A stretch of DNA of 64,000 nt from Escherichia phage vB_Eco_mar004NP2 (OR896837.1); one strand, 5' to 3'; shown: positions 9,759-64,000, counted from the stretch's first letter. A program made the numbers and translations. Notes: generated from the letters alone by a model not told the origin.

Positions 9759-9901
9759 TACATAACCCTTTGCTACCCATCTACCATATCGGAATTATAA
9801 AGTGGTTATTGACATTTTCGCCGCTTAGGTATATACTATTATCATTCAGTTGAGGGATAGAAAGTTATGGCGAGGGTAAGCAAAGTTAGTTAAAATTGTA
9901 G

Positions 9902-9930
9902 TTGCTAAATGCTTAAATACTTGCTATAAT
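9902..9930 (+). promoter_or_regulatory. sigma70-like early promoter inside the ligase split
   Basis: TTGCTA-17 nt-TATAAT; a second candidate TTGACA-17-TATACT lies at 9813-9841. Confidence 0.5.
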
Positions 9931-9960
9931 ATTTATATAAATTGATAAGGAAGAAATTTG

Positions 9961-14392: not shown

Positions 14393-16960
14393 TTGAAAAT
14401 CGCAGTAGTTGATAAAGCTCTAAATAACACTCGTTATGATAAACATTTCCAGCTATACGGCGAGGAAGTTGATGTATTCCATATGTGTAACGAGAAGTTA
14501 TCCGGTCGTTTGCTCAAAAAGCATATTACTATCGGGACTCCGGAAAACCCATTTGACCCGAATGATTATGATTTTGTTATACTGGTAGGTGCCGAGCCTT
14601 TCCTGTACTTTGCAGGTAAGAAAGGCATTGGTGACTATACTGGTAAACGTGTAGAGTATAATGGATATGCTAACTGGATTGCGAGTATCAGCCCCGCCCA
14701 GTTACACTTTAAGCCTGAAATGAAACCAGTTTTCGATGCAACAGTAGAGAATATCCACGATATTATCAATGGTCGTGAGAAGATTGCAAAAGCTGGTGAT
14801 TACCGTCCTATTACTGACCCTGACGAGGCGGAAGAATATATCAAGATGGTGTATAATATGGTTATCGGACCTGTCGCATTCGACTCCGAAACCTCAGCAC
14901 TATACTGTCGAGATGGTTATCTGCTTGGTGTTTCTATGTCTCACCAAGAGTATCAGGGTGTATATATCGATTCTGATTGTCTCACAGAGGTTGCAGTATA
15001 TTATCTCCAGAAAATTCTGGATAGTGAAAACCACACTATTGTTTTTCACAACTTGAAGTTTGATATGCACTTTTATAAGTACCATCTGGGACTTACTTTT
15101 GATAAAGCACATAAAGAACGCAGGCTCCATGATACCATGTTGCAGCATTATGTTCTAGATGAGCGTCGTGGTACTCATGGCTTGAAATCTCTAGCAATGA
15201 AGTATACCGATATGGGCGACTATGACTTTGAACTAGATAAGTTCAAGGAGGATTACTGCAAAGCACATAAAATCAAGAAAGAAGATTTCACCTATGATTT
15301 AATTCCGTTTGATATTATGTGGCCTTACGCTGCAAAAGATACCGATGCCACCATACGTTTGCACAACTTCTTCTTATCAAAAATTGAGAAGAATGAAAAA
15401 CTTTGCAGTCTGTATTATGATGTCCTAATGCCTGGTTGTGTATTTCTCCAGCGTGTTGAGGATCGTGGTGTACCTATTTCTATTGATCGTTTAAAAGAAG
15501 CTCAGTACCAGTTAACCCATAATCTGAATAAGGCTCGTGAGAAACTGTATACTTATCCAGAAGTCGTTCAGCTAGAAAAAGACCAGAACGAGGCGTTTAA
15601 CCCAAACTCTGTTAAGCAACTGCGTGTTCTTCTGTTTGATTATGTTGGCTTAACTCCAACAGGTAAATTGACGGATACTGGGGCAGACTCTACAGATGCA
15701 GAAGCTCTGAATGAACTGGCTACGCAGCATCCAATTGCTAAGACTCTACTAGAGATTCGTAAGCTGACTAAGCTGATCTCTACTTATGTTGAGAAGATTC
15801 TTCTGAGTATTGATGCAGATGGTTGCATTCGTACTGGTTTCCATGAACATATGACTACTTCTGGTCGTCTGAGTTCTTCTGGTAAACTGAACCTGCAACA
15901 GTTACCTCGTGATGAATCTATTATCAAGGGTTGTGTAGTAGCTCCTCCCGGGTATCGTGTAATTGCATGGGACTTAACAACTGCGGAAGTTTATTATGCT
16001 GCTGTTCTATCTGGTGATAGAAATATGCAACAAGTATTTATCAACATGAGAAATGAACCTGATAAATACCCTGACTTCCACTCTAACATCGCACACATGG
16101 TATTTAAACTCCAATGCGAGCCTCGTGATGTTAAAAAGTTATTCCCAGCTCTGCGTCAGGCTGCTAAAGCAATCACCTTTGGTATTCTGTATGGTTCTGG
16201 CCCGGCTAAAGTAGCTCATTCTGTTAACGAAGCTCTTCTGGAACAGGCTGCTAAGACAGGTGAACCGTTTGTAGAGTGTACTGTTGCGGATGCGAAGGAC
16301 TATATCGAAACTTACTTCGGTCAGTTCCCGCAGCTTAAGCGTTGGATTGATAAGTGTCACGACCAGATCAAGAATCATGGATTTATCTATAGTCACTTTG
16401 GTCGTAAACGTCGTCTGCATAATATCCATTCCGAAGACCGTGGTGTTCAGGGTGAAGAAATCCGTTCTGGATTTAACGCAATCATTCAGTCTGCTTCTTC
16501 CGACAGTCTCCTTTTAGGTGCTGTAGATGCAGATAATGAGATCATTTCTCTTGGCCTAGAACAAGAGATGAAGATTGTTATGCTAGTTCATGACTCCGTA
16601 GTTGCTATTGTTCGTGAAGACTTGATCGACCAATACAATGAAATCCTGATTCGTAATATTCAGAAAGACCGTGGTATTAGTATTCCTGGCTGTCCGATTG
16701 GTATTGATTCAGATTCTGAAGCAGGAGGTTCTCGTGACTATTCTTGTGGTAAGATGAAGAAACAGCACCCATCAATCGCTTGTATTGATGATGATGAATA
16801 TACTCGTTATGTCAAGGGTGTATTACTTGATGCAGAGTTCGAGTATAAGAAACTAGCTGCAATGGATAAAGAGCATCCAGATCATAGCAAGTACAAGGAT
16901 GATAAGTTTATTGCTATATGTAAAGATTTGGATAACGTGAGAAGGATTCTCGGTGCTTAA
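14393..16960 (+). CDS. DNA polymerase, family A with 3'-5' exonuclease domain
   Basis: 855 aa; exonuclease motifs (VAFDSETSAL, YAAKDTDAT) and Pol-I-type polymerase motifs (RQAAKAITFGILYGSG, VMLVHDS); TTG start with AGAGGAG RBS; 855 aa matches the T5 polymerase length as I recall it. Confidence 0.95.
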   Translation: MKIAVVDKALNNTRYDKHFQLYGEEVDVFHMCNEKLSGRLLKKHITIGTPENPFDPNDYDFVILVGAEPFLYFAGKKGIGDYTGKRVEYNGYANWIASISPAQLHFKPEMKPVFDATVENIHDIINGREKIAKAGDYRPITDPDEAEEYIKMVYNMVIGPVAFDSETSALYCRDGYLLGVSMSHQEYQGVYIDSDCLTEVAVYYLQKILDSENHTIVFHNLKFDMHFYKYHLGLTFDKAHKERRLHDTMLQHYVLDERRGTHGLKSLAMKYTDMGDYDFELDKFKEDYCKAHKIKKEDFTYDLIPFDIMWPYAAKDTDATIRLHNFFLSKIEKNEKLCSLYYDVLMPGCVFLQRVEDRGVPISIDRLKEAQYQLTHNLNKAREKLYTYPEVVQLEKDQNEAFNPNSVKQLRVLLFDYVGLTPTGKLTDTGADSTDAEALNELATQHPIAKTLLEIRKLTKLISTYVEKILLSIDADGCIRTGFHEHMTTSGRLSSSGKLNLQQLPRDESIIKGCVVAPPGYRVIAWDLTTAEVYYAAVLSGDRNMQQVFINMRNEPDKYPDFHSNIAHMVFKLQCEPRDVKKLFPALRQAAKAITFGILYGSGPAKVAHSVNEALLEQAAKTGEPFVECTVADAKDYIETYFGQFPQLKRWIDKCHDQIKNHGFIYSHFGRKRRLHNIHSEDRGVQGEEIRSGFNAIIQSASSDSLLLGAVDADNEIISLGLEQEMKIVMLVHDSVVAIVREDLIDQYNEILIRNIQKDRGISIPGCPIGIDSDSEAGGSRDYSCGKMKKQHPSIACIDDDEYTRYVKGVLLDAEFEYKKLAAMDKEHPDHSKYKDDKFIAICKDLDNVRRILGA

Positions 16961-20107: not shown

Positions 20108-21085
20108 ATGAGAATATTATTTAGTGCTGATCATCATATTAAGCTGGGCCAAGATAAGATACCCAAAGAATGGCAGAAGCGTCGCTTCCTGATGCTAGGA
20201 GAACGGTTAAATGATATATTCCATAATCATAACTGTGATTTGCATATTATTGGTGGTGATTTATTTGATCATTCCGACCCGTCGTCGGAAGAAGTAGAAC
20301 TTCTAGAAAAATTTATGTCTAGGCTAGATCATATAGGAATGGTATTTACAGGTAATCATGAATTAATAACTAAGACTATTTCATGCCTATATCATTATGC
20401 AGGAGTTATTAATAAAGTAACGAGTGGTAAGTGGGAAGTAATTACCAAACCATATCGTTCCCCTGAATTTGATATTGTTCCATATGACGAAATCCATAAA
20501 TCTAAGTGGAAACCTCCTGTATCAAAACTATGTTTCACGCATGTTCGTGGTGAAATCCCTCCACATGTAAAACCAGAAATTGATCTAACTAAGTACAACT
20601 GTTATGATACTGTAATTGCTGGCGATTTACATTCTTATACTAATAGCCAGACTATCGGATCTACTAGACTTCTCTACCCAGGATCTCCATTAACTACATC
20701 GTTCCATAGAGAACGCACAAAAGGTACAAATGGTTGCTTTATCATTGATACCGACACATTAAAAGTAGAATGGATTGAACTAGGTGATTTACCACAACTG
20801 ATTCGTAAAACAATCGGAGCAGGTGAAGAGATGGAACCTAGTGATTATGATCGTGTAGTCTATGAAGTTACTGGTGACGTTGTTCAATTAAAGTCTATTA
20901 AAGACTCTGATTTGTTAGATAAGAAGATTAACCATCGAGTTACTAAAGACGCTAAGTTAAATCTTGTTGATCTTGATATGTTAGGGGAACTTGAACTTTA
21001 CTTCCGTGAAGTCGAGAAGCTGTCTCAAGGCGACATTGATAGAATCTTGGCTAGAGCTGCGAAATATGTCAAAGATTACAATTAA
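20108..21085 (+). CDS. SbcD/Mre11-like nuclease subunit
   Basis: Calcineurin-like phosphoesterase motifs ADHH, GGDLFDH, TGNHE. Confidence 0.8.
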   Translation: MRILFSADHHIKLGQDKIPKEWQKRRFLMLGERLNDIFHNHNCDLHIIGGDLFDHSDPSSEEVELLEKFMSRLDHIGMVFTGNHELITKTISCLYHYAGVINKVTSGKWEVITKPYRSPEFDIVPYDEIHKSKWKPPVSKLCFTHVRGEIPPHVKPEIDLTKYNCYDTVIAGDLHSYTNSQTIGSTRLLYPGSPLTTSFHRERTKGTNGCFIIDTDTLKVEWIELGDLPQLIRKTIGAGEEMEPSDYDRVVYEVTGDVVQLKSIKDSDLLDKKINHRVTKDAKLNLVDLDMLGELELYFREVEKLSQGDIDRILARAAKYVKDYN

Positions 21086-22904
21086 GACACTAAAATTTAG
21101 TAACGTTATGTCTTACGGTAGGGACATCGTAATTCATTTCGATAAGAATCCAGTTACTCAGTTAATCGGAGGAAACGGTCTAGGGAAGTCCACTATTGCT
21201 ACTGTTATTGAGGAATTGTTTTATAGCAAGAACTCACGTGGTATCAAGAAGGACGCCCTATTCTCTTGGGGTTCTCCGAAGAAAGAGTATGATATGCATG
21301 CTTACTTCTCGAAAGATGAAGATGAGTATGAATTGCATAAAGTAGTTAAATCAACTGCTAAGGTTACACTGATTAAGAATGGAGAAGATATCAGTGGACA
21401 CACAGCAACTCAAACGTACAAGATGATTGAAGAGATTATGGGTGGTGACTTCCAAACATTCACTAAACTAATCTATCAATCTGTTGGTTCCAATCTAGAC
21501 TTCCTCAAAGCAACAGATGCAACACGTAAGGCTTTTCTTGTTAACTTGTTCAATCAAGAACAGTATAAAGAAATGTCAGAAACTATTAAGGCTGACCGTA
21601 AAGAAATAGCAAATACCTTAAATAATTTGCAGGGCCAAATGGCTGTAATTACAAAAATCCTTAATGGAAAGAATAACTTGGGAACCTTACAAGAACCAGT
21701 CGAAGTACCAGAATTTGATGAAGAACCATTAGCACAAGAACTTACAGAATCGAAAATTAAGGCGGCATTAGCCAAGTCTCAAGAGGCTAATATTACTAAA
21801 TTGCGTAATTTGGACAAAGCTGTACAAGTTGCCGAACAATCTTTCGAGCCTTTCAAAAATTTGCCTGCGCCCACCGACCAAAATGAAGAGATCTCGAGTG
21901 TTACGCGTGACCTAACGATTGTGACCTCACGTGCGGGCGAAGTCAAGAAACGTTATCAGAAGTTCAAGCAAGAGGCTTCAAATACTGAATGTCCTACTTG
22001 TGGTACTCACCTGGATACAACTGCTGCTCAAAAAGCAATGGATATGGCTAGAACAGAATATGATCCTCTGTTCAAAGAGAAGCAATCTCTTGAAACCAAG
22101 CTAGAACAGCTGAAGAAAGAACAACTTGAGTACACTACGTATATTAGAGCAAAGGATGCTTTGGATAAAGCAGTAGCAGCTAGAGACGAGTTCAAAAATT
22201 CAATGAGTGATGCTTCTTTTGAAGAACTCAATGTGCAAAACCTACAGGTGCAAATACGACAATTAGAACAGGAAATTGCTGATGGACGTTCTAAGGTTGC
22301 AATTGCCAAAGAGCATAATGCAAATGTTGAATTAGCCAATGCAAAATATAAAGCGAAACTAGAACAGATTGAGAAAGCTGAGGCAGAAATGTCTGAGATT
22401 ACTTCCAAACTGGATGAAGTATCAGAAGCTGTTGCTGATCTCGATATTCTGATCGCCGCATTGAAAAATCTGGTAGGGTATAAGCTAGAGCATAGTGTGA
22501 AAGTATTTGAAGAACTAATTAATAAATACCTTTCCATTATGACTGGTGGTAAGTTCGCACTTGGATTTGAACTTGATGAAACAAAATTACAAGTAGTAAT
22601 CTTCAATGATGGAAACCGTACCAGTATGGAGAACTGCTCTACTGGTCAGCAAAGTCGAATCAACCTAGCAACTCTGTTAGCTATTCGAATGCTACTAACA
22701 TCTATTAGTAAAGTTAATATTAATCTTCTATTCCTTGATGAAGTAATTAGCTTTATTGATACGAAAGGACTTGACACCCTTGTTGAATTATTAAATGAGG
22801 AAGAAAGTCTAAACTCTATCATTGTTTCTCATGGGCATACGCATCCATTGGCCCATAAGATTACTGTCAAAAAAGATGCAGAAGGATTTTCCTACTTAGA
22901 ATAA
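21066..22904 (+). CDS. SbcC/Rad50-like ATPase subunit
   Basis: Walker A GGNGLGKST, long coiled coil with CPTCG zinc hook, Walker B LLFLDEV; start taken at ATG 21066 (MSKITIK). Confidence 0.8.
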   Translation: MSKITIKTLKFSNVMSYGRDIVIHFDKNPVTQLIGGNGLGKSTIATVIEELFYSKNSRGIKKDALFSWGSPKKEYDMHAYFSKDEDEYELHKVVKSTAKVTLIKNGEDISGHTATQTYKMIEEIMGGDFQTFTKLIYQSVGSNLDFLKATDATRKAFLVNLFNQEQYKEMSETIKADRKEIANTLNNLQGQMAVITKILNGKNNLGTLQEPVEVPEFDEEPLAQELTESKIKAALAKSQEANITKLRNLDKAVQVAEQSFEPFKNLPAPTDQNEEISSVTRDLTIVTSRAGEVKKRYQKFKQEASNTECPTCGTHLDTTAAQKAMDMARTEYDPLFKEKQSLETKLEQLKKEQLEYTTYIRAKDALDKAVAARDEFKNSMSDASFEELNVQNLQVQIRQLEQEIADGRSKVAIAKEHNANVELANAKYKAKLEQIEKAEAEMSEITSKLDEVSEAVADLDILIAALKNLVGYKLEHSVKVFEELINKYLSIMTGGKFALGFELDETKLQVVIFNDGNRTSMENCSTGQQSRINLATLLAIRMLLTSISKVNINLLFLDEVISFIDTKGLDTLVELLNEEESLNSIIVSHGHTHPLAHKITVKKDAEGFSYLE

Positions 22905-22907
22905 AAC

Positions 22908-23390
22908 ATGGCTGTAGATAGTAGAGAGAAAGGTAAACGTGGTGAATATCAGGTAAGAGATATTCTACGCGAGCGTACAGGTCTTGAGTGGGAACGTGTT
23001 CCTGGCTCTGGTGCTTTTGGCCAGAGCCACGGACTGAAAGGTGACATCTACCTTCCACCACAAAGCGGACACATTAGTAAATACTGCTTCGAAGTTAAGT
23101 GGTATAAAGATGATAATATATCAAGTAATTTATTTAATGTCGGTGAATCCACTCTAGAGAAGTGGTGGCAGCAATGCTCACGTGAAGGTGAGCAGATGAA
23201 CTCCAAGTCTGCATTAATATTCAAAAAAGACAGAGGACAGTGGTTAATAGCTTTGGATAGCGCAGACCCGATGGTTGACAACTTAATGAGTCGTACCCAT
23301 ATGGTGTTAAATAAGAAAGACATGGAAATCGTAATTGGTTTATTTGAACCGTGGCTACATCATGCATCTGTTGAGGACTTAATTAAATAA
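22908..23390 (+). CDS. PD-(D/E)xK nuclease, putative Holliday-junction resolvase
   Basis: GDIYL...CFEVKW fits a D...E-x-K active-site arrangement; lies between SbcC-like and flap endonuclease genes. Confidence 0.45.
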   Translation: MAVDSREKGKRGEYQVRDILRERTGLEWERVPGSGAFGQSHGLKGDIYLPPQSGHISKYCFEVKWYKDDNISSNLFNVGESTLEKWWQQCSREGEQMNSKSALIFKKDRGQWLIALDSADPMVDNLMSRTHMVLNKKDMEIVIGLFEPWLHHASVEDLIK

Positions 23391-24265
23391 TGAGTAAATC
23401 CTGGGGAAAATTTATTGAAGAAGAGGAAGCTGAAATGGCTTCCCGTCGTAACCTAATGATTGTTGATGGAACTAACTTAGGCTTCCGCTTCAAACATAAC
23501 AATAGTAAAAAACCATTTGCCTCAAGTTATGTTTCCACTATTCAGTCTCTAGCAAAATCTTATTCTGCTAGAACTACAATAGTTTTAGGGGATAAAGGAA
23601 AGTCTGCATTCCGCCTAGAGCATCTTCCAGAGTATAAAGGGAATCGAGATGAGAAATACTCTCAGCGTACGGAAGAGGAAAAAGCGTTAGATGAGCAGTT
23701 TTTCGAGTATTTGAAAGATGCTTTCGAACTATGTGAAACTACATTCCCAACCTTCACTATTCGTGGTGTAGAAGCAGATGATATGGCAGCTTATATTGTT
23801 AAGCTGATTGGGCATCTATATGATCATGTTTGGCTAATTTCTACCGATGGTGACTGGGATACTTTATTAACTGATAAAGTTTCTCGCTTCTCTTTTACAA
23901 CACGTCGTGAATATCATCTTCGTGATATGTATGAGCACCATAATGTTGACGATGTAGAGCAGTTTATCTCTCTGAAAGCAATTATGGGTGATTTAGGGGA
24001 TAATATCCGTGGTGTTGAAGGTATTGGGGCAAAACGCGGGTATAATATTATTCGTGAATTTGGTAACGTTCTGGATATTATTGATCAGCTTCCACTACCT
24101 GGAAAACAGAAATATATACAGAATTTAAATGCTTCGGAAGAATTGCTTTATCGAAACCTAATTTTAGTTGATTTACCTACCTACTGTGTGGACGCTATTG
24201 CTGCTGTAGGTCAAGATGTATTAGATAAGTTTACAAAAGATATTTTGGAGATTGCAGAACAATGA
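23390..24265 (+). CDS. 5'-3' exonuclease / flap endonuclease (FEN family)
   Basis: 291 aa; N-terminal LMIVDGTNL, central GVEADDM and C-terminal H3TH-like GIGAKRG motifs; 291 aa matches the T5 D15 length as I recall it. Confidence 0.9.
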   Translation: MSKSWGKFIEEEEAEMASRRNLMIVDGTNLGFRFKHNNSKKPFASSYVSTIQSLAKSYSARTTIVLGDKGKSAFRLEHLPEYKGNRDEKYSQRTEEEKALDEQFFEYLKDAFELCETTFPTFTIRGVEADDMAAYIVKLIGHLYDHVWLISTDGDWDTLLTDKVSRFSFTTRREYHLRDMYEHHNVDDVEQFISLKAIMGDLGDNIRGVEGIGAKRGYNIIREFGNVLDIIDQLPLPGKQKYIQNLNASEELLYRNLILVDLPTYCVDAIAAVGQDVLDKFTKDILEIAEQ

Positions 24266-53175: not shown

Positions 53176-53413
53176 TATTGTAATTGCTTTTATTATCGGG
53201 ATACTCGCGGGAGTTTTCGGGACGACTGCGGCAATCAATAAGCATCGTAAATATATTGCGGGAGTGACGCGGGAGATTGCGGAAAGGGAGCGGAAGTTTG
53301 ACGAGAAACGTGCGGAGTTTGAGCGGGAGTGGTCGGATGGATCTCGGGCGTCGCGGAAGAGATTCCGTGAGTTCAGACCAGAATACAGGTTTGATGACCC
53401 TTCTATGCGCTAA
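53168..53413 (+). CDS. small membrane protein (81 aa)
   Basis: N-terminal TM helix (IVIAFIIGILAGVFG), highly charged C-terminus; 3' end lies in the 76-bp tandem repeat. Confidence 0.4.
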   Translation: MFSIVIAFIIGILAGVFGTTAAINKHRKYIAGVTREIAERERKFDEKRAEFEREWSDGSRASRKRFREFRPEYRFDDPSMR

Positions 53414-53519
53414 TTTGACTTTTGCCAATTTCTTTGGATTACGTGAGTTCAGACCAGAATACAGGTTTGATGACCCTTCTATGCGCTAATTTGACTTTTG
53501 CCAATTTCTTTGGATTACG
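53368..53519. repeat. 76-bp tandem direct duplication (2 copies)
   Basis: GTGAGTTCAGACCAGAATACAGGTTTGATGACCCTTCTATGCGCTAATTTGACTTTTGCCAATTTCTTTGGATTAC occurs at 53368-53443 and again at 53444-53519. Confidence 0.9.
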
Positions 53520-53641
53520 TACGCGTGGGTGTGTCCAGTGGCCCCCCAGATGAGAATGAGTCTCATTACCGCCCGGTACTTAGCAGGCTAATAGTCACGG
53601 CATGGTATCATTACACACCGTGACTATTTCAACTTTAATTG

Positions 53642-54376
53642 TTAGGCAACTTTTAATTTCTCAATATATTGTTGAGGACTGCAACTATATTCTGCGCGTT
53701 CTTCCTCGGTCATACCTTCCCAGCATAATTTTAAACGGTCAGCTAGGAATTGATAATCATTATCATCGTCGAGAGATTCATCAATAAAGGTTTCACCTAT
53801 CAATGCCACGCCGATTGATAGAATATCATTAACGGCTTGTGCGTCCAGCGTTTTAAATCCGTATGACGCTGCCGCTGATAGCACGCCTTTATGATCATCA
53901 ATCATTGTAAAATCAGCGTTAGGATATAACTGTTTAAATAATTCAAAATAATAAGATTTATATACTGCGTCTTTGCTGTGGTATATTTCGCTAACCTTAT
54001 CAGCTTTAAAATATTTGTGTAGTGTATCGCGGGAAAATACGCGGATATTACTATTACCACGACCGCGCAACCCTTGTTTACGCAAGAAATAATAGTCCGA
54101 CTTACTCATCAGTCGAGCGGTGCAAATAATGTTTAAAGTATTTGCGTCATTCATGCACTGGCGCATATATTCAACCAATGGCAATAAAGTATCTTGCATT
54201 ATTAAATGGTGTTTACACGCTTCATTTTTATACTTATTTAAATCTAAATTGCCCTCGCTATCAAAGCAGGGTGCTATACGATGGAAAGAATTAATGATAG
54301 TGCCGTCTAAATCCCAAATCATGACGCGGGAAATATGCGGGAAGCTGCGGGAAAGATTCATGATAGCTTTATTCAT
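53642..54376 (-). CDS. dmp: HAD-family 5'-deoxyribonucleotidase (Dmp-like pre-early protein)
   Basis: HAD motif I IWDLDGTII; 244 aa; next to the A1-like gene. Confidence 0.65.
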   Translation of the reverse strand: MNKAIMNLSRSFPHISRVMIWDLDGTIINSFHRIAPCFDSEGNLDLNKYKNEACKHHLIMQDTLLPLVEYMRQCMNDANTLNIICTARLMSKSDYYFLRKQGLRGRGNSNIRVFSRDTLHKYFKADKVSEIYHSKDAVYKSYYFELFKQLYPNADFTMIDDHKGVLSAAASYGFKTLDAQAVNDILSIGVALIGETFIDESLDDDNDYQFLADRLKLCWEGMTEEERAEYSCSPQQYIEKLKVA

Positions 54377-54455
54377 TTGTTACGTTCTCCATTTAAGGGA
54401 TTAGATTAATTCAGCATTACCCGCTATTTATAAGCGGGTAATAATAAATTAACTA

Positions 54456-54848
54456 TTAAAGACCATAAGCCAACGCATCGGCGATAAAACTAACATCCTC
54501 ACCTGATACATGGGAACGAATCCCCGCACAAGTATATACTTTTGCAGAAATCAATTGATCATCAAGGCAAGCGGGGCAAGGCGCGACAACTGCAAAGGCT
54601 AGACCGGATTTTACTGCGTCGATGATAATCGTTTCTTGTTTCGCCGTGTCAACATAAACGCCTTTTGCTTTAATATGGCTAGTTAGTTTGCCTTGCATAT
54701 ATGCAAATGTTGTAACCTGCAAAGCGTCATTGAAATCTAGCAATTCATCAATAACGTGCCCCGCCTCGACGTGGTAACGCTCACCATTAGAATAAACCAG
54801 AACAATTGAGGATTGAGCGCGGTCAAATGGAATATTTTGCTTTTTCAT
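54456..54848 (-). CDS. hypothetical pre-early protein
   Basis: 130 aa; GC-richer codon usage than the late genes. Confidence 0.45.
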   Translation of the reverse strand: MKKQNIPFDRAQSSIVLVYSNGERYHVEAGHVIDELLDFNDALQVTTFAYMQGKLTSHIKAKGVYVDTAKQETIIIDAVKSGLAFAVVAPCPACLDDQLISAKVYTCAGIRSHVSGEDVSFIADALAYGL

Positions 54849-54886
54849 GTTTATAAAACTCCAATTAGTTTAATAATGGATTTAAT

Positions 54887-55144
54887 TTATTTGATAATAA
54901 TCTGCATCTGGTACGGTGTTAATTCACCGTTTACGGGTAAATTATTATCGCTTAGCCACTCATAAAAAGCACCATCATCGTCAAAGGGTACAATATCATT
55001 ATCACTATAATCGACCGTAATAATCCCATCAGTATTAGTTTTGGCGGCTAGAATAGGCCCGAAGCTGTAAACTTTATCGGATTCCATTTCATCCGGTGAA
55101 ATAAATGCTTTTTCGTCTAGCGTTTTGGGTAATGTAACTTTCAT
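54887..55144 (-). CDS. hypothetical protein
   Basis: 85-aa acidic protein. Confidence 0.4.
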   Translation of the reverse strand: MKVTLPKTLDEKAFISPDEMESDKVYSFGPILAAKTNTDGIITVDYSDNDIVPFDDDGAFYEWLSDNNLPVNGELTPYQMQIIIK

Positions 55145-55200
55145 TCTAATTTAGCTCCTGTAATAGCGGCTATATTTCAAGCCGCTAGGGGATTAATTAT

Positions 55201-56865
55201 TTACGCAAAGAATTTACCGTTTTTAAAGTCAATCAAAGTGCGCTGACCGTTTGCATAGGTAATTAAATGCGTTTGCGTCCAGCTTGACGCGCCAACGTTG
55301 TAACCCATGTCCAGACTACCAGCTACGCCAGCGGTATACACGCCGCCATAAATGCTGGCGGTGTGAGTGTGTCCGGTGTTTAATTTGCCCAATTTCTTAA
55401 ATTGTTTAGGATTGCCACGGCTGCCGTTAATGCCGTTGTGACCGTGTACGCCGCATTCAATGCCTACAATCTTGAAAGATTGGTCAGTAGTTAGAAAAAT
55501 GGCGTTAAACTCACAACCTGCAACCTTGCGCAGCGCATAATCTAGCACGTTGAAAGTATCGTCTTTTTCTGCAATAGCTCCATAAATCGCGGCATTTAGG
55601 CGGTGATATAGTTCCGCGTTTGCTGGATCGTCTTTAATGTTAGCATTACGATCATCAAGCCAACGGGATAGCGCCAAATCGTGATTAGATTCAACAATGA
55701 TTGTTTGCGAGAAATCACGTTCCATTGATTCCAGCACGCGCCCCGTATCGATAAGATCATCTAATACCTTATCACGTCCGGCGGCGTATTGTTTTGCTAG
55801 GAATACACCGGATGCGCGGTTGTGATGGTTGCGTGATGTAAAATCATGCACGTCATGGATAAACTGATATTTAGGCTTGAGAATATCAAGCAAGCTATTT
55901 TCGCCAGCCCATGACGCAACGGCACAATCATCATCTAGTTTTTCTGCGTGAATATCGCCGTATTGCAAGCCTAAAACATGCCCCGATGTCTCATAGCATC
56001 CGGCAGGAGTAGCGCACACATTCAGATCATAAAATACCCCGCTTTCGTCCATCGTTTCGAGCTGGCGTACAAAAAATTCCCCGTCCTCGTCGAACTCGAC
56101 AATTAGCGCACCGAAGTTATGCAGCGCCTCGGCCTTTTGTCCTGCTTTCTGCTGAATGTAGTTTTTGAGCGTTGCCGTTCCGGTTGAGTACATACGGCGC
56201 ACTACTTCACCTTTTAAAGCTGGCACGCTTTCAGCGGTAATTTTAGCGTGACCAATTGCCAGACCTTCCAGATTAAGCGCCGTTGCAGTTTCAGCGAATC
56301 CAGAAAGCGGATAATCTGCGGTTGGCAAAACGTTAATTTCAGCCATGAAAGCAAAACGGCGGTTATTTAAAAACACGTTTTTATTGCAGATATATTTGTC
56401 AAATGCGGAATCATATTTTATTCCTTCTGCACCCTCGCCATTTTGAAAACCGTTTTTGTTATAAATAAACTTGCTAACCAGCAAATCAGCGCCGATATAT
56501 TTAGCAAATTGCTCCAATGAGGCTAAAAAGTTTTTATGCGGGAAAGTATTATTCTGAATCGACGTAATAATAAAGCGTTTACCCTGCTTTACTTCCCATT
56601 GCTCAACCGTGCTAGAAACAATCCCCGCCGCTTCTGGACGCTCATCGTTTTTAATGGCTTTTGCTACTTTCGCCGCTTTCGGTTTAGCTGGTTTATTTGC
56701 TTCCAACCAGTCGCAGATAGCGGTCGAGTGTTTTGTTGTATCGTAGACCGCTTTTGATATATCGTCGCAGACCTCCAGTTTAGTAGCGCGCAGACGTTTA
56801 CCATAGAAATTAAAGTCAGCGGCCATTTTCAGGATAACGGTTTGTTTTTCTGTGGAAATAATCAT
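55201..56865 (-). CDS. A1: A1-like pre-early metallophosphatase/nuclease
   Basis: 554 aa with calcineurin-like motifs (GDIHAE, ESNHD, GVHGHNG, GHTHT); size close to T5 A1 (about 556 aa as I recall). Confidence 0.65.
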   Translation of the reverse strand: MIISTEKQTVILKMAADFNFYGKRLRATKLEVCDDISKAVYDTTKHSTAICDWLEANKPAKPKAAKVAKAIKNDERPEAAGIVSSTVEQWEVKQGKRFIITSIQNNTFPHKNFLASLEQFAKYIGADLLVSKFIYNKNGFQNGEGAEGIKYDSAFDKYICNKNVFLNNRRFAFMAEINVLPTADYPLSGFAETATALNLEGLAIGHAKITAESVPALKGEVVRRMYSTGTATLKNYIQQKAGQKAEALHNFGALIVEFDEDGEFFVRQLETMDESGVFYDLNVCATPAGCYETSGHVLGLQYGDIHAEKLDDDCAVASWAGENSLLDILKPKYQFIHDVHDFTSRNHHNRASGVFLAKQYAAGRDKVLDDLIDTGRVLESMERDFSQTIIVESNHDLALSRWLDDRNANIKDDPANAELYHRLNAAIYGAIAEKDDTFNVLDYALRKVAGCEFNAIFLTTDQSFKIVGIECGVHGHNGINGSRGNPKQFKKLGKLNTGHTHTASIYGGVYTAGVAGSLDMGYNVGASSWTQTHLITYANGQRTLIDFKNGKFFA

Positions 56866-56962
56866 ATTAATAAAACTCCATTAAAGGGATTAAAAAACGT
56901 TTGTTATTGGCAAATATTGCCAAATATAACGCCTTGAATAATAGGCGTTATAATTTGCAACA

Positions 56963-57160
56963 TTAATTTAAAGGCATAAGGCTAGAACTAACACCACAAG
57001 CAATGGCGGCAATAAAACAAATCAGACCTAAACGCTTTGCCAATTTAGACTTACGTTTAAAATAATATGAGTCTAAATCATTTTGAAAATAAGCGAATAA
57101 TAACGAGGCCGCCATAATAAATAAGCCTAGAATTAACGATTCAGTGGGGTAAAAGATCAT
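56963..57160 (-). CDS. small membrane protein
   Basis: 65 aa with two hydrophobic helices. Confidence 0.4.
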   Translation of the reverse strand: MIFYPTESLILGLFIMAASLLFAYFQNDLDSYYFKRKSKLAKRLGLICFIAAIACGVSSSLMPLN

Positions 57161-57216
57161 TTTAAAACTCCAGTCAAAGAGAAATTATAGTGGGGAATAT
57201 TCCCCGCTAATTAAAT

Positions 57217-57624
57217 TTATTCACCTGCGGCCTGTTTTACTTCATCGGCAACGCCTAACAGTTGCGCTACGGCGTCCAGCGTTTCAAGTTTTGCACTTTC
57301 CAGACTTGCCAGACCGTCGGCGTCTTTAATAATGCCGGAATCAATAGCATGTTTAGCGATAACGCGTACATAGTGAGCTTTGCGGATTGAGCTACCGCCG
57401 CCAACTTTGCGAGGCTTATCGCTTTTCTGATACGCTTTTGCGCTGGTCAATTTTGATCGAACAGACACGGGAGAAGACGCGCCCACTGCTTTTGCAATCT
57501 CTTTTAAACCGTCGCTATTTGCGAAATCTAAACCGTTTTCATTAATTAACTGCTGGTACATAGAAACAGCTTTTTGAGTGTTTTCTTCATTCCAAGCAAA
57601 TTTTGCGGTTTTAACGTTAGTCAT
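57217..57624 (-). CDS. hypothetical pre-early protein (candidate A2-like by size and position, unverified)
   Basis: 135 aa, immediately upstream of the A1-like gene. Confidence 0.4.
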   Translation of the reverse strand: MTNVKTAKFAWNEENTQKAVSMYQQLINENGLDFANSDGLKEIAKAVGASSPVSVRSKLTSAKAYQKSDKPRKVGGGSSIRKAHYVRVIAKHAIDSGIIKDADGLASLESAKLETLDAVAQLLGVADEVKQAAGE

Positions 57625-57720
57625 GGTAAAAACTCCTATTAGTTTAATTTAAGGGATAAGATTAACATAATGTTAATCGTTATATCCCCCGAACTACTGG
57701 GGGATATAAAAGTAACACTA

Positions 57721-57972
57721 TTACGCTACAGCTTCCCATTTTTCGTTACGCTGTACAACCTTTACAACGTCGCCGGATTTAACGCGAACGCTAAAAACGG
57801 TTTTGCCGTTGTTACTACGTTCATTTTCAGCGTATACCGCGTCGATTGTATCAAACGGCATAAGCGCCGCACCTTTAATACGTTCGGCTTTTCCGGTTAG
57901 TTCATCCGTTTTAGTAACGAAAGGAATAAAAACGGATTGACCAATTTTAGGCGCGGTAATAACGTTTTGCAT
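57721..57972 (-). CDS. hypothetical protein
   Basis: 83-aa ORF with an RBS. Confidence 0.4.
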   Translation of the reverse strand: MQNVITAPKIGQSVFIPFVTKTDELTGKAERIKGAALMPFDTIDAVYAENERSNNGKTVFSVRVKSGDVVKVVQRNEKWEAVA

Positions 57973-58202
57973 AGTATAAACTCCAAGTTATTTAGGGGAT
58001 TGTTCCGCATTACCTGCTAGAAAGTAGCAGGTAATAAGCAACAATCCGCTCACCGCTATAATCAATTTAAGGAACTCCACGCAGGCTGCTATATCCCAGT
58101 TAGGGGGCAGGATGATTTATGGGGAATCACCTAACCGTCAAATTGTATCAAGTTATCGCTCTCATCGAACTGGGTACATCTTAAAGCCTATCGGCTAGGG
58201 TG

Positions 58203-58406
58203 TCAAACTGTTTTTTGCAGTTTTTTATGATTTTCTTTCAGGTCGATCATAATATTACGCCAGATCATTTCTAAACCCTGCTGGCGGCCTTTCTTGTACT
58301 GAGCAAATCGGTATTTTACGGATTGCTGGGCTATTGTCAACAATTTTTTAGTAGTACCATCTAATTTTTTAGCTGGTTTACCAGTGATCAATAAAGTTTG
58401 TTTCAT
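58203..58406 (-). CDS. hypothetical small basic protein
   Basis: 67 aa, Lys-rich. Confidence 0.35.
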   Translation of the reverse strand: MKQTLLITGKPAKKLDGTTKKLLTIAQQSVKYRFAQYKKGRQQGLEMIWRNIMIDLKENHKKLQKTV

Positions 58407-58863
58407 ATCTGCGATTCCTTATAATATAAGTTTACCGCCGATAGACTTTAAGATGTACCCAATTTTTAAAGAGCGCGGCGGTAAACTTCCCGCCGTGTAG
58501 TTCGTCATTGCCGCCCTACGAGATAAATAATAGCAAATAGTAAAAATGGCGCAACCTTATTTTTGTAAAGAAACGTAAAGACAAAATGCCACCGGACACC
58601 GTGCGGCGACCTGGGCGCGGCGCACTAAAATTAAAGGAAACGGGCGCGCGAATACCATAAAACCCAGCAGGTTGGCAAGTAATTTTTTCATTTATATTTG
58701 CCTTGCCCTACTTGACAAAAACTAAAAAGCTCGTGGTAGCGATAAACGAGGGTAGGCAATGCAATGGCATGGCTAAAAACTTCATCGCGTTATAGGGCGT
58801 TTTAGGCGCATTCTAGCCTTGTTGATAACTTATCCCCAAAAGCAAAAATGAAATTTTCCTAGT

Positions 58864-58895
58864 TATCCACTTGACTTTTATTTTCCAGTGGATAA
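58864..58895. promoter_or_regulatory. inverted pair of DnaA-box-like sites
   Basis: TTATCCACT (58864-58872) and AGTGGATAA (58887-58895) form a palindrome around TTGACTTTTATTTTCC. Confidence 0.4.
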
Positions 58896-59156
58896 CTACT
58901 TATTTTATGAAATAAATTAATTGACTTTTATTTGTTAGTATGCATCGGAAAGATAGCAGACTAATAGTTGCTAGGATGATAATCATGCTGGTGGATTGTA
59001 ATAGCCGGAACTGTTAGCAGACTATTAATCACGGAAAATCTCATTAGCCAACTAACTATTTCATGATATATAATATACTTATAAATTAATGAGAAATAAT
59101 AATTATAAGAAATCGTAACCGATAGAAATAATAACTATAAGAAACTATCGTCCTAA

Positions 59157-59286
59157 GTGAGAACCACTATCGTTTAAGTTATCCACAAGTTTATTAACAG
59201 CACAAAATGATTTGACACGATAGGCGACGATATAAGGACTTATCCACAGACTTATCCACATGTTATCCTACTGTATAAATATACAG
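59157..59286. repeat. left inverted repeat with three DnaA boxes
   Basis: TTATCCACA at 59179, 59240 and 59252; ends in palindrome CTGTATAAATATACAG; about 80% reverse-complement match to 62758-62884. Confidence 0.7.
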
Positions 59287-59552
59287 GGTAAAAAGGTAGT
59301 GTTAACAACTGCAATCAATTTTAGGCGGCCTAAAACGCTTTCTAACGAGCTAAATGCGGTGGGGTAATATTAAAGTGAAGCCTTCACCCGTCGCCCTGGT
59401 GGCTTCACCGTGTTTTGCTCTTTACTGTACCGCTGCGCGGTTAGCATAAAACTAGGCGCTAGGCAAGGAAAATAAAAAGGTAAAATAATATTTGCCTATG
59501 CTAGAAAATTGCCTTTATCATTCACTCACCGATTAACGAGGGAGGCCAACAA

Positions 59553-60314
59553 ATGAGGCTATATAAACCAGGTAACGCAACCGTCTTAAAAGGTGCGCTG
59601 CGTAACCTGCTGGACGGTAGCAGAACAACCAGCATTAAACATTTTATTAACAAGGCTGAAACTATTCACCAAAACTTTTTTGGTGATTTCGATGCCTATG
59701 ATATGAATAGTTTTCTACCGTTATATAAACAAGGGGCAACGCTTGTTTTATATAATCAAGATTATCAATTGCTCACTAGTCGAGGGCCGGATACTGATTT
59801 CATAATCGTAAAAGGTAGCACAGTAAAAGCCTATGATACTGGGGCAGGCTTAGAAGTTTTTTCAATAGAAAATTATGAAGCCAACCCCAATGATCTTTAT
59901 GATATTGAAAATTTTCTTGATTCATTTTGGCGTTATTTATCAGTTGGCTGGAATCGGTCGGATTGTGACGGGTATCGTTTCGCGGCTGTAATGGCCTTTG
60001 ATGATAACGGTAATTTTTTGTTACCGTCGGAAGTGTACCCTTATGTATATGAGGGGGATATTGAAAGCGCGGGCTTTTCTTTCTGGAAGGAGGAAGATCA
60101 GCCTATTGACAACACGGAAAAACATGCTGTAAATTCTAACACTCAAAGCGTTAACACTCAAACTACTGAAAACAAAGGAAATAATACCATGACCAAGATC
60201 GCTAATATCGTTGCCGCTAATAAATCCGCTGTTGTAAATGCTGCAAAACTGGAAGCTGGCAAAATTGCATTGACTCAAATCACGAAAGTAGCGGCTAAAA
60301 ACCGCCGTTTATGA
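59553..60314 (+). CDS. hypothetical pre-early protein
   Basis: 253 aa; RBS GAGGGAGG. Confidence 0.5.
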   Translation: MRLYKPGNATVLKGALRNLLDGSRTTSIKHFINKAETIHQNFFGDFDAYDMNSFLPLYKQGATLVLYNQDYQLLTSRGPDTDFIIVKGSTVKAYDTGAGLEVFSIENYEANPNDLYDIENFLDSFWRYLSVGWNRSDCDGYRFAAVMAFDDNGNFLLPSEVYPYVYEGDIESAGFSFWKEEDQPIDNTEKHAVNSNTQSVNTQTTENKGNNTMTKIANIVAANKSAVVNAAKLEAGKIALTQITKVAAKNRRL

Positions 60315-60544
60315 TTAAAGGTTATATTGATACGCCGATTGGTCGGGTAGTTATTGCTAACCTGCTGAGCGTAGCGGTTGACCAGTACGCCCCGAATAAC
60401 CAGAAAGCGAAAGCGGTAGCAGGCGCAGCTATGGAAGCGGCAATGCTAGAAATGGTGCAAAGTTTTAACATCGCTGAAATGATTGATGAAATGGTGAAAG
60501 GTATCGATATTTCTACTTTTACCACTAGCACCGAAAGCGAGTAA
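60311..60544 (+). CDS. hypothetical protein
   Basis: 77 aa; ATGA coupling. Confidence 0.45.
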   Translation: MIKGYIDTPIGRVVIANLLSVAVDQYAPNNQKAKAVAGAAMEAAMLEMVQSFNIAEMIDEMVKGIDISTFTTSTESE

Positions 60545-60609
60545 TAATATTTAGTGGGGATTGTTTCCCCGCTTTACTATTCCCTTATTAATTAATAGGA
60601 GGCTAATAA

Positions 60610-61104
60610 ATGGCTGAGGAAAAATATGGGTTTTCGCTAGGGGAAGTGAGCAAGGCTAAACATGATATGATCATTTTGGTCGATTGTCATACTGGCTATT
60701 GCGGTGAAGGGAATACTGAGGAATATTTTGTTCCTGCTGGTACGGATCTCGACGCTTTCGCTCATGAAATGGCTGTTGATAATGCTTCTCGTTTTGGTAG
60801 CGATGGCTATGAAGATGAGGAAACGGGCGAATGGTATGAGAATGATAATGTATATGCAAGCCTTTATCATTATCAATTAAGTAAATCCGGCACATATGTA
60901 AACGGCGGCGATCCTATTAATTCCGTCATGAAATTAATTATTAAATATGGTGGCGCTGAAATAATCGGAAATAAAGCGGTAATATACGCAAACCGACTAA
61001 AACAGCTTGTTTATATCCCTGATAGTACCCGATGGGATGAATACGCTGTTTTGCATGACGAATTGAAACGATGTTTCAATATTGAAACATTACAAGTAGT
61101 TTAA
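60610..61104 (+). CDS. hypothetical protein
   Basis: 164 aa; RBS AGGAGG. Confidence 0.5.
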   Translation: MAEEKYGFSLGEVSKAKHDMIILVDCHTGYCGEGNTEEYFVPAGTDLDAFAHEMAVDNASRFGSDGYEDEETGEWYENDNVYASLYHYQLSKSGTYVNGGDPINSVMKLIIKYGGAEIIGNKAVIYANRLKQLVYIPDSTRWDEYAVLHDELKRCFNIETLQVV

Positions 61105-61210
61105 TGTAAAGTTTTGTAAAGGTCGCCATAATTGGTGGCCTTTTTTGTTATAATGCCTTTACACCGTTTAAGGACGGTTGAAAATTTTCCCAAAAATTTG
61201 GAGGCTTAAA

Positions 61211-61441
61211 ATGGTTGCTTATTCTTCTGCTAGTCATCTGTTTACCGCGCAAGGCTGGGTATCTAATCATGCTGTCATCTATGAAATGGTGCAGGAGTTC
61301 GGTATTGTTAAAACCTATAATACCATTCAGGAACTATATAACGCCGATAAAATCGATCAGCAAACGGCTGGCTTTTTGCTGGATACCCTGAAGGCGGAAC
61401 ATTGCACCAAAAAACAAGCTGCAAAAATTGTTTTAATGTAA
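61211..61441 (+). CDS. hypothetical protein
   Basis: 76 aa from ATG 61211 with GGAGG RBS (track start 61178 is TTG). Confidence 0.4.
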   Translation: MVAYSSASHLFTAQGWVSNHAVIYEMVQEFGIVKTYNTIQELYNADKIDQQTAGFLLDTLKAEHCTKKQAAKIVLM

Positions 61442-61491
61442 TTAATAACGGGGGATATAATATCCCCCGATAACTAGGAGGATATCACAAA

Positions 61492-61641
61492 TGGTTATTT
61501 TTCGAGCTATTCTAGCAGGTATCTTGGGCGCTATTTTATCACTTTTTGCAATAGCTTTCGGCGTTCACGCGGTTATTATTGGTGCGGGTATCGCTGTATT
61601 TTCTTATCTGCTGGGCTGCATGACTAGTAAAGGAGAATAAA
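61492..61641 (+). CDS. small membrane protein (49 aa)
   Basis: Hand-translated MVIFRAILAGILGAILSLFAIAFGVHAVIIGAGIAVFSYLLGCMTSKGE; RBS AGGAGG. Confidence 0.35.
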
Positions 61642-61642
61642 A

Positions 61643-61855
61643 ATGATTCGTAACGTTTCCCTTGCACGTTCAAAAGGCTTTAAGCTGGTGGACGTTAACA
61701 CGTTCGAGCGGGAAGATTGTAAAATTGAATATGTAGCGCGAAATAAAAACGTCTTCCGTGTTACCGAGAAAAAATTCGATAAACGGGGCAACGTGATAGC
61801 TGAAACAGTTAAACATTTTGCCACCTTTTACGCTGCGTTTCGGGGAGTGCTATAA
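61643..61855 (+). CDS. hypothetical protein
   Basis: 70 aa; RBS AAAGGAGA. Confidence 0.4.
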   Translation: MIRNVSLARSKGFKLVDVNTFEREDCKIEYVARNKNVFRVTEKKFDKRGNVIAETVKHFATFYAAFRGVL

Positions 61856-61856
61856 A

Positions 61857-62201
61857 ATGGTAATTTATGAAGGCAATCGTTTTGTTGCTAATTGCCGTCC
61901 GGCATTACTAGCAAACTACTTAAATCAGCTTTCCCCAGCTTATAAGGGCGTTATTAATATTTATGAAGGCAAGGCGCATTATAAAATCAATGCGGTCGTT
62001 GCCCGTGAACTAGCGTTTCAATTTTTGACCTTTGCATCTTGCGACGTTCAGGTCATGGGTGAGGCGTTAATTGCAGAAAATGAAGATGATTTTATTAATA
62101 TTTTTCGCAAGATATGCACCGAGCGCCTGATAATGAAAGGCGCGTATATTCAATCCACTGCGGATAGTATTGAAACAGCGTTTCGAAAGGTGGCGCAATG
62201 A
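61857..62201 (+). CDS. hypothetical protein
   Basis: ATG 61857 directly after the previous stop (track start 61818 is further upstream). Confidence 0.4.
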   Translation: MVIYEGNRFVANCRPALLANYLNQLSPAYKGVINIYEGKAHYKINAVVARELAFQFLTFASCDVQVMGEALIAENEDDFINIFRKICTERLIMKGAYIQSTADSIETAFRKVAQ

Positions 62202-62301
62202 GATTATATATTTTCGCGGGTAATGTTGAGGCTGCAAATGATTCCGCTGGTGGCGATAACGTTCGCCACTATTGGCAAAAATATATTTACTAGGGGTTAT
62301 T

Positions 62302-62496
62302 ATGAACAATAAAATTGTTGTAACCAAAATCAGTACAATGGTTGATGTTTTTTACGTGCCCGATACGCCGGAGAATCGGCAAGCGGTCGAGCGTGGCGAA
62401 TATGATAGCGTTATTTATGATGCCGATGGTTATTATCAGCATTTGGTGGATTCCTACGGGGAGGAGGAAAAGATCACGCATCGACTACCAGACTAA
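62302..62496 (+). CDS. hypothetical protein
   Basis: 64 aa from ATG 62302 (MNNKIVV...). Confidence 0.3.
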   Translation: MNNKIVVTKISTMVDVFYVPDTPENRQAVERGEYDSVIYDADGYYQHLVDSYGEEEKITHRLPD

Positions 62497-62757
62497 TAAT
62501 AACGGGGCGCAACTACCAGGGAGTGCCCCCAATTCTCAAATGAGAGTGATTCTCATTTAACCGCGCCCGCGATGGTTAGCCTGCTAATGATTAAGGTGTT
62601 ACATGTCGCCTTGTGTGATCGTTAGCAAGCTAACTAATTTTTAAGCCTCCTCCAATTTTGCCCTTGTTTTAGTATCCCCATCAAAATTAAACGCGTTAGA
62701 ATGCGATTCAGGACGTTTTAGGCCTATATTAGAATTATTCACTACATAGGAATATTG

Positions 62758-62884
62758 TATATTTATACAGTAGGATAAGCTGTGGATAAGTCTGTTAATA
62801 ACGCCTCAAAATGGCTAGGATTCTGTCAAATCAAATCGTGCTGTTAATAAGTCTGTGGATAACTTAAATAACAGTGTTTCTCAC
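62758..62884. repeat. right inverted repeat with DnaA boxes
   Basis: TGTGGATAA at 62781 and 62854; reverse complement aligns with 59157-59286. Confidence 0.7.
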
Positions 62885-63060
62885 TTCCATTCTTAAATGA
62901 GAATCATTATCATTCGCATTCCACTGTCTAACCGATAATCATTTCCTTTCTTAAATGAGAATCATTTCACTTTTTGAATAGTTCTCATTTCACTTCTTAA
63001 ATGAGAATCATTATCATTCGCATTCCACTTCTTAAATGATAATGATTCTCATTCAAAGTC
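62885..63060. repeat. array of TCTTAAATGAGAATCATT-type repeats
   Basis: At least four direct or inverted copies of AAATGAGAATCATT / AATGATTCTCATT; related palindromes at 53547-53568 and 62537-62560. Confidence 0.7.
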
Positions 63061-63078
63061 GCAGGGCAATTGCCCTGC
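63061..63078. repeat. perfect 18-bp palindrome
   Basis: GCAGGGCAATTGCCCTGC. Confidence 0.9.
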
Positions 63079-63084
63079 GCTTTT

Positions 63085-63685
63085 GTGCAAATCCGACATA
63101 TGCCACCATGGATTACGCGCGGGCGTGTATGTGCGAATCCGACAATTTTTGGTAGTGTGCAAATCCGACCCCAAAAATTTTTATAGTGTGCAAATCCGAC
63201 AATGAATTTTCCCAAAAACTCCAGCAATCACGAACTGCGTTCGAATCCTGTGGGATATGTGCAAATCCGACACGGTTTTTCTAGGATTAAGATGTGCGAA
63301 TCCGACAAGATTTTTGTGACTTCGATTGGAGGGTGTGTGATTGTATAGGTTTGAGGAGAAGATGAGAGAGCGAGAGAAAATAAGGGGAGAAACTGGAGGA
63401 GCAGCATGGGTGGCGTGCAACGCCTGATTTGCTGCGTTTTTGGGAAGAGTTGAGAAGATTTGGGTTAATTTGAGATTAGTGGAGATAAAGTAAAATTTTA
63501 TTTGCTAAAGGTGGCAAAATAGCTTGACAAGTGAAAATTTTTTGTGACCCTAAAAACTCAGGCAATCATGGGCCTTCGGCCCGAAATAATGCTGCCATTT
63601 TCAGGAGATTATGTATTCATGAAAACTTAGGCGTTTGTGCAAATCCGACCATAAATTTCTAGAAACACAATGTGCAAATCCGACA
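63085..63685. repeat. dispersed array of GTGC(A/G)AATCCGAC(A/C) 14-mers
   Basis: Eight copies, at 63085, 63131, 63157, 63188, 63259, 63294, 63637 and 63672, all in the same orientation, irregular spacing, no ORF. Confidence 0.85.
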
Positions 63686-64000
63686 GTAATTTCTGGAAAT
63701 GTGTTTTCAAAAAATGTCTCCTAGAAATAACCGCCCTCCCTATAACCGCCCTGTATTAAACCGGCCTAGGATATGTAACGTTGGAGAGAAACTGCCCTAG
63801 AGTGTAAGAGTTTTCCTAGAAACTTAGGAGTCTAGAAGAAAGTGTTGTGCCATCCTAGCAGATGAGCGGCAACAGGTGTATCATCTTGAATGTAAATTAT
63901 ATGGTCAAAAAGTTTTACTTTTATTTTAAATATAAGATCCCCCAGGGTTCTCATATAGAGCTTTGCCCCCGCCAGAAGGTCTCGTGATGTTTCTAGTAAT

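Follow-up and report, generated by a model that had tools for sequence, protein, structure and literature searches.

Orthologues of T5 Dmp and A1 in the terminal repeat of a tequintavirus, and the predicted active site of A1

What chemistry is encoded by the two large open reading frames (ORFs) at 53642-56865 of the 64,000-nucleotide stretch presented above as Escherichia phage vB_Eco_mar004NP2 (OR896837.1)? The whole stretch is referred to here as the window. A first-pass annotation of this DNA had described the locus as a pre-early host-takeover module carrying a Dmp-like phosphatase and an A1-like metallophosphatase. Orthology and synteny with phage T5 (NC_005859) were demonstrated, as were the folds and the intact, invariant active sites of the two proteins, and the best explanation as a whole, to which we assign a probability of roughly 80%, is a T5-like pre-early operon in which A1 would be a DNase whose products feed Dmp. 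The span holds four ORFs of 244, 130, 85 and 554 amino acids, all on the minus strand, an orientation absent from the first-pass annotation. The two large ORFs are as follows.

53642..54376, minus strand: dmp, predicted deoxynucleoside-5'-monophosphatase, HAD superfamily, 244 amino acids; 93% identity to T5 Dmp
55201..56865, minus strand: A1, 554 amino acids in four regions; 95% identity to T5 A1 over 556 amino acids

Identity of the two large proteins

The product of 53642-54376 is the orthologue of T5 Dmp (T5.001), and not merely a similar protein, because it combines 93% identity with the same length of 244 amino acids and the same terminal position and gene order. In both phages the terminal repeat opens with dmp, approximately 110 bp from the predicted end, and no difference of substance between the two proteins was found. 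The product of 55201-56865 is likewise the orthologue of T5 A1 (T5.004, 'DNA transfer protein') because of its 95% identity and the same position and order in the terminal repeat, where it adjoins A2 and occupies the slot between that of T5.003 and T5.005/A2. The two A1 proteins are of the same length apart from a 2-amino-acid indel and differ by 27 substitutions, none at conserved motif positions and none amounting to a difference of substance. Full-length membership of the T5 A1 family was also indicated by a match to PHROG 1745 covering residues 9-553 (E value, 3e-244). The earlier terms 'Dmp-like' and 'A1-like' can therefore be sharpened to orthologues.

The 8 kb surrounding the locus showed 99.8% identity to Salmonella phage SPLA5b, Salmonella phage PMBT29 and Escherichia phage vB_Eco_mar004NP2, and 483 phage records matched it in all; the window is placed in Tequintavirus, family Demerecviridae. 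Near-identical records label the two large ORFs 'deoxynucleoside-5'-monophosphatase' (in some, 'polynucleotide kinase') and 'DNA transfer protein A1'. Neither gene is new: both have been named in T5 and are being actively studied there, and the window adds no variant feature to them. The import for the window itself is small, since A1 and dmp rank among the T5 genes known longest and near-identical GenBank records already annotate their orthologues as such. The labels do call for a warning: 'DNA transfer protein' describes a phenotype, 'polynucleotide kinase' is a mis-transferred name, and neither gives the likely chemistry. The added value is modest and lies in a domain map of A1 and in a metallophosphoesterase assignment that stands on fold and invariant ligands, not on detectable sequence homology.

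The HAD motif DxDGT noted earlier in ORF 53642..54376 was recovered by direct pattern match as D22-L-D-G-T26; D.DGT arises in 0.27% of composition-preserving shuffles of Dmp. All residues of the HAD motifs DxDx[TV], [ST], K and DD (D22, D24, T26, T86, K140, D160 and D161) were invariant across 27 homologous sequences, down to 41% identity. Dmp has the Rossmannoid HAD fold, and the HAD assignment was confirmed by motifs and fold. The protein consists of the HAD domain, into which a helical segment of approximately 55 residues is inserted between motifs I and II, and of an acidic C-terminal tail that is helical and poorly predicted. Pfam HAD_2 scored below its threshold on Dmp (14.2 bits against a cutoff of 23.8; E value, 0.048) and covered the motif I region only. 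A single-sequence search of the PDB with Dmp returned noise, and a profile of the Dmp family, run against the PDB, matched HAD motif I alone and below threshold. In precomputed annotations, the Dmp homologues bear the family-specific domain PF26880.

Active site and domain architecture of A1

Direct pattern matching placed the four A1 motifs listed by the first-pass annotation at G303-D-I-H306, N394-H-D396, G475-H-N-G478 and G498-H-T-H501. Taken singly, these motifs are too short to be rare, and any one of them turned up in 4-12% of shuffles; GD.H, NH[DE] and GH.H in canonical order occurred in 7 of 200,000 composition-preserving shuffles of A1. From this frequency and the 0.27% obtained for Dmp, the occurrence of the motifs in both proteins exceeds chance.

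Conservation was determined by aligning the window protein and 120 homologues, the most distant at approximately 41% identity, with MAFFT. G303, D304, H306, D338, D341, N346, H347, H348, S393, N394, H395, D396, H474, H499 and H501 were conserved in all 121 sequences. The loss of metal ligands, which had been named beforehand as the observation that would overturn the assignment, was thus not seen among the A1 homologues. One detail of the earlier description did not hold: H476, the histidine of 'GHNG', was conserved in only 114 of the 121 sequences, so that H474, two residues upstream and invariant, is the better candidate for the motif-IV histidine. With this correction, A1 carries all five metallophosphoesterase motifs (DxH/GD/GNH[DE]/H/GHxH) as GD304xH306, HD338, SN394H395D396, H474 and GH499xH501. 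Motifs II and III deviate at their first residue (HD for GD and SNHD for GNHD), and D341 and N346-H347-H348 are invariant in addition to the canonical motifs. Each ligand motif directly follows a predicted beta-strand, as in canonical metallophosphoesterases.

The AlphaFold2 model of A1 was confident, with a mean predicted local distance difference test score (pLDDT) of 87.6 and a predicted template modelling score (pTM) of 0.79, and it displayed the double beta-sandwich metallophosphoesterase fold. The metallophosphoesterase assignment of A1 was confirmed by this fold and the invariant ligands, and the C-terminal domain is predicted from the model to be an intact two-metal calcineurin-fold phosphoesterase. 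The model divides A1 into an N-terminal three-helix domain resembling a helix-turn-helix (HTH; residues ~1-60), a Lys/Ala-rich linker of low confidence (~60-88), a conserved beta-rich middle domain (~90-295) and the C-terminal alpha/beta metallophosphoesterase domain (~295-554).

Pfam HTH domains (HTH_23, HTH_38, HTH_7 and CENP-B_N; best E value, ~3e-6) were matched at the N-terminus of 7 of 30 distant A1 homologues, and hhalign related the T5-type N-terminus to these HTH-bearing N-termini with a probability of 97.9-99.4%. On these grounds, the first 60 residues of A1 most likely form a divergent HTH domain. Such a domain is consistent with the reported association of A1 with DNA and RNA polymerase (bioRxiv 10.64898/2026.04.02.716235; bioRxiv 10.1101/866236). 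The middle domain is retained in all non-T5 homologues, the alignment of which starts at residue ~75-95. Its invariant residues are T101, Q104, N105, T107, Y135, N136, P181, P186, T228, G229, T232, N235, Y236 and H249, and its invariant motifs are TSxQNNT, YNxxGFQN, PxxxxP and TGxxTxxNY.

A1 as a probable DNase and the alternative explanations

T5 A1 is essential and is needed for host DNA degradation and second-step DNA transfer (bioRxiv 10.64898/2026.04.02.716235; bioRxiv 10.1101/866236), and T5 Dmp is a non-essential 5'-deoxynucleoside monophosphate (5'-dNMP) phosphatase that raises virulence (bioRxiv 10.64898/2026.04.02.716235; PMC13250531). The functional statements on T5 Dmp and A1 in the first-pass annotation agree with this literature (bioRxiv 10.64898/2026.04.02.716235; bioRxiv 10.1101/866236). 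When expressed alone in Escherichia coli, T5 A1 suffices to eliminate chromosomal DNA (bioRxiv 10.64898/2026.04.02.716235). A2, a DNA-binding dimer that associates with A1, is also required for second-step transfer, and the breakdown products of T5 infection are excreted and not reused (both bioRxiv 10.64898/2026.04.02.716235; bioRxiv 10.1101/866236; PMC13250531).

In the explanation that we favor, pre-early transcription would run leftward from strong sigma-70 promoters in and adjoining hdi, crossing A2 and A1 before reaching dmp, the gene at the very end of the repeat. A1 itself would most likely cut the host chromosome as a metal-dependent DNase and yield 5'-dNMPs. Dmp, a small HAD aspartyl-phosphatase, would then hydrolyze these dNMPs to deoxynucleosides and phosphate, which would exit the cell rather than being reused. 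Two steps of this scheme are inferred, namely that A1 is itself the DNase and that its products are the substrates of Dmp.

The distribution of the genes was determined by tblastn against 50,697 phage records, of which 1134 were matched by A1, 908 by Dmp and 892 by A2. Dmp and A2 were restricted to phages of Enterobacterales, Vibrio, Aeromonas and Proteus (Demerecviridae-type hosts), and the order A2-A1-x-Dmp was retained at 35-46% identity, including in distant Vibrio phages. A1 alone reached phages of Flavobacterium, Caulobacter, Rhizobium, Cellulophaga, Sphingobium and Brevundimonas. These homologues outside Demerecviridae share approximately 32-39% identity over residues ~75-554, and neither A2 nor Dmp was detected alongside them. 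For example, in the Autographiviridae Rhizobium phage RHph_I38 the A1 homologue (3959-5476) lies between a DnaB-like helicase gene and the genes for ligase and DNA polymerase I, and in Flavobacterium phage elemoA_1-9B the homologue (3770-5359) closes an early/metabolic block. A separate 'calcineurin-like phosphoesterase' is encoded near the latter. To our knowledge, two-step injection is not known in the phages that carry A1 homologues outside Demerecviridae. Because A1 is found among replication genes, without A2 or Dmp and where two-step injection is not known, the conserved role of its core is more likely a catalytic action on DNA than 'DNA transfer'.

Several results weigh against the DNase explanation. 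The profile search for the metallophosphatase family, which had been proposed as a check on the assignment, returned no Pfam Metallophos match (PF00149/PF12850) for A1 or for any of 30 homologues at E ≤ 1. A PDB profile search with the A1 family gave a single spurious short match, to a dehydroquinase (a single-sequence search gave only noise), and Foldseek gave no match at E ≤ 0.001. The hhalign probability between the A1 family and a 27-sequence profile of the phage SbcD family was 0.1%, and that between the A1 family and the window's own SbcD-like protein alone was 0.3%; a residue-by-residue alignment of A1 with Mre11-type proteins is therefore not obtainable from sequence. In the searches made, no sequence profile tied A1 to any characterized metallophosphoesterase. 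Nuclease activity has not been demonstrated for purified A1, and activation of a host nuclease has been kept possible (bioRxiv 10.64898/2026.04.02.716235). The explanation also does not account for the sparing of unmodified T5 DNA from A1.

It is conceivable, and in our view unlikely, that A1 is a scaffold or regulator with a metallophosphoesterase fold that switches on or redirects a host nuclease and whose primary roles are DNA transfer and RNA polymerase binding. Non-catalytic metallophosphoesterase proteins lose their metal ligands, whereas the A1 ligands persist in 121 of 121 sequences down to approximately 41% identity; this strict conservation argues against a purely structural role such as that of Vps29 or the polymerase B subunits. 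The sufficiency of A1 alone for chromosome loss in E. coli, and the position of its homologues amid replication genes in phages not known to use two-step injection, also speak against a scaffold. Less probable still is a metallophosphoesterase domain directed at a phosphoester other than DNA, e.g., a phosphoprotein, as with lambda phosphatase and calcineurin, or a (cyclic) nucleotide signal, in which case DNA loss would be indirect. We attach an equally slight probability to the idea that 'Dmp' acts on nucleic-acid ends, as a polynucleotide 3'-phosphatase or kinase, instead of on mononucleotides. This idea is supported by PHROG 415 and several GenBank records, which label the protein polynucleotide kinase, and by the solved folds closest to Dmp, the 3'-phosphatase domains of Pnkp1 and T4 Pnkp; this likeness explains the label. 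Dmp shares only 18-20% identity with the 3'-phosphatase domain of T4 polynucleotide kinase-phosphatase, from which it also differs by the lack of a kinase domain and by its helical insert and acidic tail. The kinase label itself was rejected, as the 244-amino-acid sequence contains neither a kinase domain nor a GxxxxGK[ST] P-loop.

A1 is a very divergent branch of the metallophosphoesterase superfamily and not a member of the Mre11/SbcD family. No sequence-profile similarity was detected to Mre11/SbcD or to archaeal PolD DP1, a 3'-5' proofreading exonuclease; both differ from A1 in the first residues of motifs II and III described above and lack its HTH-like N-terminus and conserved domain of approximately 200 amino acids. 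Unlike Mre11, A1 has no capping domain and no Rad50/SbcC partner, its neighbors being A2 and small ORFs. The canonical SbcD-SbcC pair of the phage sits apart from A1 at 20108-22904 and consists of an SbcD/Mre11-type nuclease (20108-21085, 325 amino acids; PF00149; E value, 8e-9) and an adjoining SbcC/Rad50-like ATPase of 637 amino acids. A1 was accordingly rejected as the Mre11 equivalent of the phage, which with this separate SbcD carries two metallophosphoesterase-fold proteins unrelated in sequence. The pair is homologous to T5 D13/D12, and a flap endonuclease (23390-24265), DNA polymerase A (14393-16960), a primase and helicases are encoded in its vicinity.

A more specific proposal, which we regard as tentative and rather doubtful, is that A1 represents a distinct phage-specific branch of metallophosphoesterase nucleases with the PolD DP1/polymerase B-subunit lineage as its nearest structural relative. 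The same doubt covers the rest of the proposal: an architecture of divergent HTH, basic linker, conserved beta-rich domain of approximately 200 amino acids and active metallophosphoesterase domain, and recruitment of the family by unrelated phages (Autographiviridae of Rhizobium, Flavobacterium and Caulobacter phages), in which it would serve as a nuclease of the replication module. If it were true, the middle domain would be expected to bind DNA or A2 or to confer processivity; alternatively, it might supply the means, long sought, by which host DNA is told from T5 DNA.

Gene layout, terminal repeat and further observations

The remaining features of the pre-early region are listed below.

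53532..63560, no strand: collapsed single copy of the long terminal repeat; approximate boundaries, predicted from T5 homology
54456..54848, minus strand: T5.002 homologue, 130 amino acids; 94% identity to T5.002; phrog_4576; no Pfam match
54887..55144, minus strand: 85-amino-acid ORF in the T5.003 slot; phrog_8297; no tblastn match with T5.003
56963..57160, minus strand: T5.005 homologue, small membrane protein; 98% identity to T5.005; phrog_4820
57217..57624, minus strand: A2, DNA-binding partner of A1 in second-step transfer; 98% identity to T5 A2; phrog_1725
57721..57972, minus strand: T5.007 homologue (DUF7177); PF23801 (E value, 3e-42); 90% identity to T5.007
58203..58406, minus strand: hdi (T5.008) homologue, host division inhibitor; 97% identity to T5.008; PF24188; overlaps the pre-early promoters

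The two small ORFs at 54456-54848 and 54887-55144 are unrelated to dmp and A1, and the latter is judged by tblastn not to be homologous to T5.003. An NCBIfam scan gave no model for any pre-early protein, and no RNA family was recognized in 52-64 kb with Rfam.

The left end of T5 ('TGTCCA...') aligns at ~53532, approximately 110 bp past the dmp stop codon. To the left of this point lie homologues of T5.159-162, llp, a receptor-binding protein and terminase, the same arrangement as at the T5 right-repeat junction. T5 9317-10717 aligns to 62661-64000, and the T5 long terminal repeat ends at 10219; the repeat in the window is therefore placed with its end near 63560, beyond which the window continues into early genes. 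These alignments indicate that the two terminal repeats of approximately 10 kb were collapsed to one copy in the assembly, and that dmp and A1 sit in first-step-transfer DNA. The leftward gene order hdi-007-A2-005-A1-x-002-dmp is that of T5. The best minus-strand sigma-70 matches of the region, TTGACA-16-TAAAAT at 58340-58313 and TTGACA-17-TAAGAT at 58206-58178, lie in or adjoin the hdi homologue, at the place of the experimentally characterized T5 promoters P-H22 and P-D/E20, and are consistent with a leftward transcription unit in this order.

Differences from the T5 long terminal repeat were observed elsewhere in 53532-63560. The HNH endonuclease gene hegG is absent, T5.016 is mostly deleted, and an extra ORF of 164 amino acids (60610-61104; phrog_6741; no Pfam match) lies between the homologues of 011 and 012. 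The homologue of T5.011, a toxic pre-early gene (DUF7566; 59553-60544), is broken into ORFs of 253 and 77 amino acids by a net loss of 1 base in an A-run region near 60297-60303, which reads 'GCGGCT-AAAAACCGCCG' in the window and 'GCGGCTAAAAAAGCGCCG' in mar004NP2 and T5. The lost base may be an error of homopolymer sequencing, or the gene may truly be inactivated.

A 76-bp tandem duplication at 53361-53512, with 99% identity between its two copies, takes in the 3' end of the T5.162-like ORF and stops approximately 20 bp outside the predicted boundary of the terminal repeat. It is not present in mar004NP2 or T5 and accounts for the 7925- versus 8001-base span in the megablast matches. Real slippage between GATTNCGT microhomologies could have produced it, as could faulty assembly of the repeat junction.

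All five perfect DnaA boxes (TTATCCACA) of the 64-kb window are confined to the two repeat regions, both non-coding, that lie within the terminal repeat, with three on the plus strand at 59179-59260 and two on the minus strand at 62781-62862; four boxes with one mismatch lie at 58820-58895. Their placement agrees with Davison's description of clusters around the injection stop signal.

The Sir2-like and HAD proteins that had been mentioned at the start of the window were found at 554-1402 (PF02146; E value, 3e-25) and 1495-2001 (HAD_SAK_2, PF18143; E value, 7e-20). The HAD_SAK_2 protein is followed by two tandem DUF7415 proteins, at 2004-2432 and 2442-2834.

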